Assembly: GCA_903832635.1 (NCBI GenBank)
Contig: CAILCF010000002.1
Span: 7,665 to 71,664 of the forward strand
Length of the DNA stretch: 64,000 bases
Direction: 5' to 3'
From: an uncultured bacterium
Lineage (GTDB): Bacteria > Patescibacteriota > Saccharimonadia > Saccharimonadales > Saccharimonadaceae
A model generated the notes under the pieces. It saw only the letters and a program-made list of their open reading frames with translations, was not told the DNA's origin and searched no databases. The translations under genes and the position numbers were made by a program. Below, piece after piece: positions 31,559 through 31,677 of this stretch (positions within the stretch are counted from its first letter, which is position 1; each line of letters opens with the position of its first letter).

Positions 31559-31677
31559 GAATCCACGACATCGTGGGTGAGAACTGCCAGTCGGCAGTTC
31601 GCAAGGCGACTTTCCGATGCAAACTGTGTTTGCATTCGTGAAATCGCGGGGTCGCGGAACGTGACCAATTCCCATCA
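31559..31677 (+). repeat. tRNA-linked T-arm-matched module, family 1 (His copy)
   Basis: gaatccacgac (antisense T-arm), catcgtggg (sense). A 32-nt block at 31575..31606 is identical to 45869..45900. A 22-nt block at 31647..31668 is identical to 45940..45961. Ends with attcccatca, which copies the tRNA-His T-loop/T-stem. Confidence 0.7.

Follow-up and report, generated by a model that had tools for sequence, protein, structure and literature searches.

What kind of sequence lies between pieces of its neighbor's transfer RNA (tRNA) gene? The question was raised by positions 31559-31677 of a 64,000-nucleotide (nt) stretch of an uncultured Saccharibacteria genome (contig CAILCF010000002.1; hereafter the window), where a module with tRNA-His sequence at both ends follows the intact tRNA-His gene. 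We named the core of this module E1 (length ~87-105 nt; 'family 1' in a preliminary description of the same DNA). The answer has three parts: E1 is a new structured RNA family, it has a single-bond address in the tRNA T-loop (nt 54/55), and it occurs in a reproducible layout of an intact tRNA, an inverted fragment and an interrupted fragment. Saccharibacteria are episymbionts with reduced genomes, and little is known of their non-coding RNA biology. The phenomenon is a lineage-wide feature of the Saccharibacteria and is not confined to the window.

Positions 31559-31677 are one of exactly three E1 copies in the window, which neighbor tRNA-His, tRNA-Lys(CTT) and tRNA-Pro(TGG). A covariance model run on the window returned exactly these three (113 bits for His, E = 5e-27; 104 bits for Lys; 48 bits for Pro) with the next match at 15 bits, and the core hairpin pattern GAGAACTGCC-N3-6-GGCAGTTC occurred three times compared to zero times in 100 shuffles. 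Each copy lay ~80-90 nt downstream of a same-strand tRNA gene. The preliminary description had proposed that the His and Lys modules share a core, and in the alignment of copies the two had a stretch of 32 nt (GGGTGAGAACTGCCAGTCGGCAGTTCGCAAGG) and one of 22 nt (CGGGGTCGCGGAACGTGACCAA) in common without a mismatch, with a middle hairpin that keeps its position and differs in sequence, as had also been described. In pairwise comparison 31559-31677 aligned with both 45837-45970 (+) and 20834-20978 (-), and independent folding together with covariation recovered the proposed architecture of three hairpins on a closing helix. Duplication during assembly, which had been raised as an objection, was ruled out: the identical His module was present in eight independent ENA/Logan assemblies and is thus not an assembly artefact. 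The module does end 4 nt before a convergent stop codon, its final tRNA-derived base being 31677 and the stop of the convergent open reading frame (ORF) starting from 31682. The ORF at 31544-31738 (+), suspected from the outset, is spurious, having no Pfam match and a same-frame stop in 37 of 67 homologous copies. The parts of the His locus are as follows.

31424-31500, + strand: intact tRNA-His(GTG), donor of the module flanks (ARAGORN; Rfam tRNA, 65.7 bits).
31501-31540, + strand: terminator-like palindromic hairpin, A/T-flanked, between tRNA-His and the module (read from the sequence).
31541-31569, + strand: decayed inverted copy of the tRNA-His 3' half (its reverse complement aligns to the tRNA 3' half).
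31561-31578, + strand: predicted hairpin P1, the inverted relic paired with the direct T-stem 5' copy, 7 base pairs (bp) and a 4-nt loop (minimum free energy fold, an energy prediction only).
31572-31578, + strand: direct copy of tRNA-His nt 48-54 (cgtgggt), which provides the closing T-stem with its 5' strand and whose T54 is also U1 of E1.
31578-31666, + strand: E1 core, His copy, 89 nt (covariance model and covariation).
31578-31603, + strand: hairpin P2, with a U1-A pair, a G-C pair, an A.G mismatch, 8 bp and an AGUC loop.
31606-31647, + strand: hairpin P3, long and variable, composed of P3a (31606-31614/31640-31647) and P3b (31618-31624/31628-31634).
31650-31666, + strand: hairpin P4, GGUCGCG-GAA-CGUGACC, with a conserved G.U pair (31654/31662).
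31668-31677, + strand: direct copy of tRNA-His nt 58-67 (attcccatca), identical over all 10 nt and beginning 19 nt from the tRNA end.

The flanks of the His module are tRNA-His debris, a truncated T-arm duplicate with the core inserted between T54 and T55, and the closing helix of the module is simply the tRNA T-stem. The 3' flank at 31668-31677 comprises the end of the T-loop, the 3' strand of the T-stem and 2 nt of the acceptor strand; the 3' tRNA matches of the window copies were short (10, 11 and 16 nt). On the 5' side, the robust part of the inverted relic (31556-31569; attgaatccacgac) is the reverse complement of tRNA-His nt 46-59, and gaatccacgac is the reverse complement of gtcgtgg(g/a)ttc in tRNA-His. 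These matches had earlier been read as flanks 'retuned' to tRNA-His; the match in sequence stood, and what had been called tuning is more aptly described as a truncated T-arm duplicate of tRNA-His together with an inverted copy that has decayed, and there was no evidence for a tRNA-tuned guide. A terminator-like palindrome between tRNA and module belonged to the same layout at the 66 class-A (downstream-type) loci; the hairpin at 31501-31540 was overlooked by a simple terminator scan because its stem is AT-rich. The tRNA terminators at 31501-31540, at 45781-45822 and at many other loci were extended palindromes whose arms include the tRNA CCA and a mirrored TGG (e.g., ccaAATAAAAT...ATTTTATTtgg) and which continued unbroken between the 3' half of the tRNA and the inverted relic. 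Rfam microRNA-precursor models gave a weak match to one such long hairpin (20968-21071). The other two copies in the window and their tRNAs are listed below.

45704-45780, + strand: intact tRNA-Lys(CTT) (ARAGORN).
45837-45969, + strand: Lys-CTT copy, with the inverted relic at 45837-45852, the E1 core at 45872-45959 and tRNA-Lys nt 57-66 at 45960-45969.
21040-21115, - strand: intact tRNA-Pro(TGG) (ARAGORN).
20836-20975, - strand: Pro-TGG copy, the long-P4 form, with P1 and the T-stem copy at 20955-20975 and the E1 core at 20852-20954.
20836-20851, - strand: 3' flank of the Pro-TGG copy, tRNA-Pro nt 57-72.

E1 is a structured RNA with three covarying hairpins (P2, P3 and P4) on the tRNA-sense strand. 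An alignment of 67 distinct short-form copies (A2) was scored against a four-helix model and contained standard pairs in 97.5% of cells, compared to 83% in column shuffles and 26-42% in controls with slid partners. Changes on both sides were found in 19 of the 32 pairs (295 cells), and none of 500 shuffles reached any of the five measures used. P3a and P3b displayed compensatory changes at all 15 pairs; four of the seven P4 pairs covaried, with the G.U pair kept in 64 of the 67 copies. P2 was invariant in this alignment because the search pattern had fixed it. It covaried in a metagenome sample collected independently of P2 (50 distinct 5' strands among 104 distinct copies) and likewise in covariance-model matches outside the original search pattern. 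The frame UGA...GCAAGG was unchanged in 101 of the 104 copies. The invariant frame of the element is G|UGA...GCAAGG...CGGGG. G.U pairs outnumbered A.C juxtapositions by 91 to 6, and the fold therefore belongs to the tRNA-sense strand.

P2, P3 and P4 form a four-way junction with the T-stem, in which nucleotides of the tRNA take part. U1 of E1 is T54 of the tRNA, and its partner is the first of the two adjacent adenines in GCAAGG. The GG at the base of P4 pairs with T55 (or C) and C56, and the final bases of P4 stand in for T55-C56. Complementarity of the closing stem at five of five pairs was found in 44 of 100 and was only moderately above the mismatched-flank control (17 of 100). Beyond the T54 and T55-C56 contacts, no core-flank covariation emerged from mutual information corrected by average product.

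Searches of catalogued RNAs gave no match to this fold. Within the window only tRNAs reached the gathering threshold of Rfam 15. At E-values up to 10, the core in the His and Pro regions was overlapped only by a 10-bit chance match to a C/D-box small nucleolar RNA (snoRNA; sR30), the other matches at this threshold being microRNA-like, on the long palindrome only and not on the core. Hammerhead, twister, twister-sister, hatchet, pistol and hepatitis delta virus (HDV)-like ribozymes had no match at E-values up to 10 in a search that covered the models without circular permutations, and the nested hairpins exclude an HDV-type double pseudoknot. Full-text literature searches found no description of E1. 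E1 is thus an undescribed structured RNA family, well supported and without a catalogued match.

Saccharibacteria metagenome-assembled genomes (MAGs) and metagenomes yielded more than 250 copies of E1. The core-pattern scan of one genome per species gave more than 118 loci among the matches listed, and the carriers among these were nearly all Candidatus Saccharibacteria or Patescibacteria MAGs; the covariance model placed 130 E1 copies in 100 of the loci listed. In the species scan 66 copies lay 70-100 nt downstream of an intact same-strand tRNA (downstream type) and ~35 lay 105-160 nt upstream of an intact tRNA (upstream type). A second, P2-independent pattern recovered at least 120 loci from metagenomes, and this independent sample (120 loci) divided into 45 of the downstream and 38 of the upstream type, the other 37 having no tRNA in range, 15 of them at contig ends. 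Orphan modules, those with no adjacent tRNA, kept a perfect tRNA 3' end and terminator. The core pattern was absent from viral contigs, and a phage origin was rejected on this ground. Within the window a module of family 1 or of the unrelated family 2 (described below) was present at six of the eight tRNAs.

The insertion address was the same throughout the downstream type. In all 61 scored copies the 5' junction lay 22 nt from the tRNA 3' end, directly after T54, and the 3' flank restarted at nt 55 or 56. The duplicated tRNA segment varied in length from 10 to 64 nt, and exact flank matches frequently ended at CCA or just past the T-stem: 23 of the 61 had the exact tRNA 3' end through CCA as their 3' flank, a few extended through a duplicated terminator, and 12 of the 61 had runs of 9-11 nt. 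In most of the 66 class-A loci the spacer between terminator and module was, on the opposite strand, a decayed tRNA 3' half, often through ACCA. The downstream layout is thus a direct tRNA, a terminator, an inverted 3' half and a direct 3' half carrying E1. The inverted relic was 78-89% identical to the tRNA. Its wobble-preserving substitutions appeared enriched near E1 (37 compared to 6), a difference that is confounded by base composition and GC-to-AT bias, and a strict test for an antisense copy across the junction, of low sensitivity, was positive for 10-20 of 89 compared to 0-4 in controls. Loci L002 and L004 carried 63-64-nt repeats that were identical within each genome and different between the two genomes, which indicates homogenization. 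At upstream-type loci the 5' part of the tRNA is duplicated as far as the insertion point. This point fell in the D-loop (nt 22-25), the anticodon loop (nt 37), the variable loop (nt 46) or the T-loop (nt 52-54). Two copies lay in antisense T-arm copies with the tRNA on the opposite strand (L057, 6870-6991, -; L112, 932-1037, -), so that E1 seems to prefer a loop behind a G-rich stem, without a strict requirement for tRNA-sense sequence.

Several loci carried more than one copy. A pseudo-tRNA-Glu (L094, 7686-8000) contained three, in its D-, anticodon- and T-loops, and two each were found at L115 (around 7505, -) and L060 (7184-7701); at L039 (30-329) and L066 (about 4460-4746, -) the entire module, tRNA 3' end included, was repeated in tandem. 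E1 subfamilies are common to different tRNAs and different species. The variable P3-P4 region reached 92-95% identity across different species at different tRNAs, compared to a mean identity of 0.65-0.70, and the same P3 was found with Lys, Gln, Thr, Leu and Glu tRNAs. A comparison of locus orthology with concerted evolution gave a weak signal either way (0.70, 0.68, 0.65). On one contig (L122; ERZ27313081 k141_930263, about 632-1900) the E1 of the His module and the 260-aa gene beside it were joined to what lies 5' of a tRNA-Leu(TAG) module, with the junction at or within E1 and different genes downstream, and the 3' end of a second contig (L123) fell exactly inside E1. These two contigs represent either real recombination between E1 copies or a mis-join induced by the repeat.

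At least one unrelated core family shares the niche of E1 in partial tRNA duplicates. The core of family 2 (...UAGUGCAG...AAAAAUGUGUUU...ACAUAUUUUU...CAAACGGA...GGAGGCUUUAGCCGA) occurred in the window at 2070-2210 (+), 45335-45465 (+) and 30245-30365 (-), downstream of tRNA-Lys(TTT), tRNA-Arg(TCG) and tRNA-Arg(TCT), in a layout of terminator, inverted T-arm relic, hairpin, T-stem 5' copy, core in the T-loop and T-stem 3' copy. The insertion point in the Arg(TCG) copy was apparently around nt 57/58. At L092 (about 1855-1969, -) a family-2 core directly followed E1, L012 and L068 carried GCCCCAAUAUUAGGGGCGGAACGGACGGCAGGACCC downstream of E1, and a sister family with the frame C-GAAAAC...GUUU-GAG was found at L196 (downstream of tRNA-Leu(CAG)) and at L006 (1-103). 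Positions 45576-45650 (+) of the window, ~55 nt upstream of the intact tRNA-Lys(CTT), held a fragment of nt 1-18 of that tRNA (gggccagtagctcagctg) and, beyond an insert of ~45 nt that contains a small hairpin, the sequence ctctaacc, which is the D-arm 3' side in reverse complement; this looks like an upstream-type pseudo-copy with neither an E1 nor a family-2 core. The genes of the window are otherwise those of an ordinary Saccharibacteria chromosome segment (ComEC, RecA/RecX, RuvABC, a type IV pilus cluster, MurT/GatD, RNase Y) and include a heliorhodopsin gene (27814-28578, -; PF18761, E = 1e-97). The convergent gene beside the His module (31682-32464, -) codes for 260 aa without a Pfam domain, and an identical product was found in at least 18 contigs from several samples.

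What, then, is E1? We consider as settled its existence, its RNA fold and strand, its tRNA address, its context beside intact tRNAs and its non-intron status. Its mobility and insertion route we infer, and the reading that we favor, with chances of about one half, is that E1 is an ORF-less mobile RNA element that targets tRNA loops and is tolerated only in partial tRNA duplicates. The nested copies, the use of four loops, the antisense copies and the tandem arrays look like accumulated insertions. The high P3-P4 identity across species at different tRNAs and the contig that appears recombined within E1 also count in favor of mobility. On this reading E1 would be, or would recently have been, a non-autonomous mobile element whose target is the G-rich hairpin loop of tRNA-like sequence, with the putative consensus site GG-U|UC, and its RNA would be produced by co-transcription with, or read-through from, the tRNA gene. 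E1 would not be removed from the tRNA, so that only insertions in partial duplicates beside an intact gene would survive. The direct and inverted tRNA-His fragments would then be footprints of a duplicative insertion or repair event and not guides. Our working conjecture is that fold-back at the terminator palindrome during such an event may give rise to the direct-inverted-direct pattern. Perfect palindromes are unstable, which would explain the decay of the inverted arm.

A number of observations weigh against mobility. Orthologous loci in different species often have the same type of P3, with compensatory changes in it. This suggests that selection has long retained the element in vertical descent, and hence that it may serve the host; in the same vein, the Pro copy of the window was 94% identical to L083 and the His copy 88% identical to L066. 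No empty-site polymorphism was seen among eight near-identical strains, and a metagenome scan with a 24-mer from the gene end found no empty-site allele. No sigma-70-like promoter was found upstream of the three window copies, all of which lie behind terminators, and a Pfam scan that took in 38 of the 58 window ORFs of at least 150 aa found no transposase, reverse transcriptase or integrase near any window copy. There were no terminal inverted repeats, the ends UGAGAAC... and ...CGUGACC not being inverted repeats of each other, and no fixed target-site duplications. The inverted copy of upstream-type loci was mostly indistinguishable from the tRNA's own palindromic arms, and the origin of the inverted copy is conjectural.

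Some of these points would be expected if E1 were instead a domesticated host small RNA, present in multiple gene copies, borne on a tRNA-derived scaffold that supplies stable ends, and acting in trans, a possibility that we take seriously and hold to be well short of probable. The P1 hairpin would form the 5' end of such an RNA, and the T-stem, the tRNA 3' end, CCA and a terminator would form its 3' end; it would ride on tRNA transcription, and its partner might, for example, be an enzyme that reads tRNA T-arms, for which it would act as a protein-binding, decoy or immunity RNA. The strong conservation of structure, with a near-invariant G.U pair and invariant junction nucleotides, is consistent with this explanation, as are the retention at orthologous tRNA loci between species while the flanks decay, the presence of modules at most window tRNAs, the frequent end of exact flank matches just past the T-stem, and the exact 3' ends through CCA of 23 of the 61 downstream copies, often with a terminator of their own, orphan modules included. 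The two or three nested copies, four loops, antisense copies and tandem arrays do not, however, resemble designed genes. The window copies furthermore lie behind terminators without a detected promoter, and their tRNA 3' ends are cut to 10-16 nt.

The ends of the duplicated segments bear on a further explanation, in which E1 and the unrelated family-2 core together represent mobile elements of a new class, autonomous and acting at the RNA level, each a minimal 'retro-intron' or catalytic RNA. E1 would recognize U|UC in exposed tRNA loops via its flank pairs (A-U54 and GG-U55-C56), insert into tRNA transcripts either by its own chemistry or through ligation into nuclease-cut tRNAs, and return to the genome as a partial copy beside the tRNA gene. 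The frequent end of duplicated segments at the mature CCA end or the U-tract of the terminator would be accounted for in this way. We consider it unlikely.

The position of the scaffold directly before tRNA sequence also recalls a guide RNA, of the type of the omega-RNA of TnpB, the TldR guide, the bridge RNA or the external guide sequence, in which the flanks that match the tRNA would lead a protein either to that tRNA or to its gene. Directly after a constant scaffold, beside a conserved GGU motif, come 10-22 nt that are identical to the adjacent tRNA, the upstream segment is complementary to tRNA nt 46-59, and the scaffold size is reportedly near that of short omega-RNAs. The omega-RNA layout of the downstream copies (a 3' flank of tRNA nt 55-76 and a 5' context of G|U) follows trivially, however, from insertion into a tRNA copy, and the complementary segment is a decaying relic. 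No TnpB, IscB or IS110 gene was found in the window ORFs scanned or adjoining any copy examined, the P3 internal loops do not follow tRNA identity, and self-targeting of essential tRNA genes by a nuclease would be lethal. A guide function is improbable. An internal guide was rejected as a separate candidate on the finding that no E1-internal column covaried with the flanks (mutual information), a result that likewise gives no evidence for an intron-style exon-binding guide, and an IS110 bridge or seek RNA on the finding of no recombinase among the window ORFs scanned, of P3 loops common to different tRNAs and of no flank-core covariation.

It is more doubtful still that E1 is the relic of a tyrosine-integrase insertion at the tRNA 3' end, with attL/attR and an attP-arm remnant, like a cis-mobilizable element (CIME). 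A direct repeat of the tRNA 3' end beside the intact tRNA is what the borders of integrative elements display, and bare 3'-end fragments followed tRNA-Gln at L048 and L084. Attachment (att) sites, however, keep an intact T-arm, whereas the core splits the T-loop at nt 54/55; the structure of the core, with its covariation of RNA type and its G.U asymmetry, contradicts this explanation; upstream of tRNAs, the D-, anticodon- and variable loops carry insertions as well; and neither an integrase, among the window ORFs scanned, nor cargo was found. The fragments at L048 and L084 are bare extra tRNA-Gln 3' ends (from the 3' side of the T-loop to CCA), ~13 nt past the intact gene and without a core, and may be a deletion scar or an att-like remnant.

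That E1 is an intron, self- or enzyme-spliced, or a split-tRNA piece needed for a functional tRNA is scarcely credible: its position in tRNA loops and its sense orientation do resemble the multi-position mobile tRNA introns reported from Thermoproteales, but in-silico removal of E1 over a grid of boundaries gave a complete tRNA in 0 of 112 copies (a constructed positive control was detected), the three ARAGORN calls among 120 metagenome loci were upstream pseudo-copies truncated after the T-stem with an intact gene 45 nt downstream, an intact cognate tRNA adjoins, the 87-105-nt core is far below group I/II size, and there was no Rfam intron match. A group I intron was rejected since a P1-P9 core of more than ~200 nt would be expected compared to the three nested hairpins of E1, and an archaeal bulge-helix-bulge (BHB) intron since its host should be functional only after excision, whereas E1 is always in truncated copies beside an intact gene. 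Of three more candidates, an antisense H/ACA-like two-arm guide leaving U55-N56 unpaired was rejected on the G.U/A.C asymmetry; a miniature inverted-repeat transposable element or paired repetitive extragenic palindrome (MITE/REPIN) does not fit the lack of terminal inverted repeats and a duplicated tRNA segment that is not fixed in length; and for an IS200/IS605 palindrome-associated element (PATE) no tnpA or tnpB was found among the window ORFs scanned with Pfam.

If E1 is mobile, it would be a gene-less element with a new target logic, possibly with chemistry at the RNA level, and also a driver of rearrangement via recombination between copies. If it is domesticated, it would be an abundant RNA tied to tRNA metabolism. 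Saccharibacteria now include cultivable, genetically tractable members, in which such a role would be directly testable. In practice, E1 modules give rise to spurious ORFs and to breaks or mis-joins in metagenome assemblies, and they should be masked during annotation.

Known systems share single traits with E1. Structured RNAs grafted onto or beside a tRNA, by which tRNA transcription or processing can be borrowed, are reportedly found as tRNA-snoRNA in plants and tRNA-microRNA in murine gammaherpesvirus 68 (MHV68), and Ponchon and Dardel are said to have engineered a tRNA scaffold; unlike in these, the scaffold of E1 is only a tRNA fragment and lies behind a terminator. The omega-RNAs of TnpB/IscB transposons and the TldR guides have a structured scaffold of ~100 nt. 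Like E1, they join a conserved scaffold of this size directly to sequence identical to the flanking target, whereas E1 has no associated protein gene that we found, has a tRNA-derived 5' flank as well and has no Rfam match. Small ORF-less repeats of reduced genomes and organelles, such as the Rickettsia palindromic elements and the Allomyces double-hairpin elements, and the repetitive extragenic palindromic (REP), enterobacterial repetitive intergenic consensus (ERIC) and Correia repeats, resemble E1 in being ~100 nt long, multicopy and gene-less, in their ability to sit inside RNA or protein genes, and in a mobilization that is unknown or trans-acting. They are essentially palindromic, and multi-helix RNA covariation is not known for them; E1, in contrast, is non-palindromic, strand-specific, fixed at tRNA nt 54/55 and always accompanied by tRNA fragments.

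Duplications of the tRNA 3' end are known from integrative elements (att sites; tycheposons, bioRxiv 10.1101/2020.12.28.424599). There, as at E1 loci, an intact tRNA is followed by a partial copy of its 3' end, whereas E1 loci lack an integrase or cargo, have a T-loop split by a structured RNA, carry an inverted copy and include upstream variants. In their insertion at one site of a structural-RNA gene, their co-transcription and the participation of flanking host nucleotides in the fold of the element RNA, R2 elements are like E1. These site-specific elements, reportedly described by Eickbush and Eickbush, are said to have a 5' ribozyme that uses flanking ribosomal RNA sequence. R2 encodes a reverse transcriptase/endonuclease and folds as an HDV-like double pseudoknot, whereas E1 is ORF-less and has nested hairpins only, with no ribozyme match. 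Finally, Fujishima and colleagues reportedly described, in 2010, mobile non-canonical tRNA introns in archaea of the order Thermoproteales. Like E1, these are related short sequences in the D-, anticodon-, variable- and T-loops of many tRNAs, in sense orientation, and they appear to transpose between tRNA genes. They interrupt functional genes and are removed by the BHB splicing endonuclease, whereas E1 is bacterial, is never in a complete tRNA, and combines a conserved three-hairpin fold with direct and inverted partial duplications of the tRNA beside which it lies.

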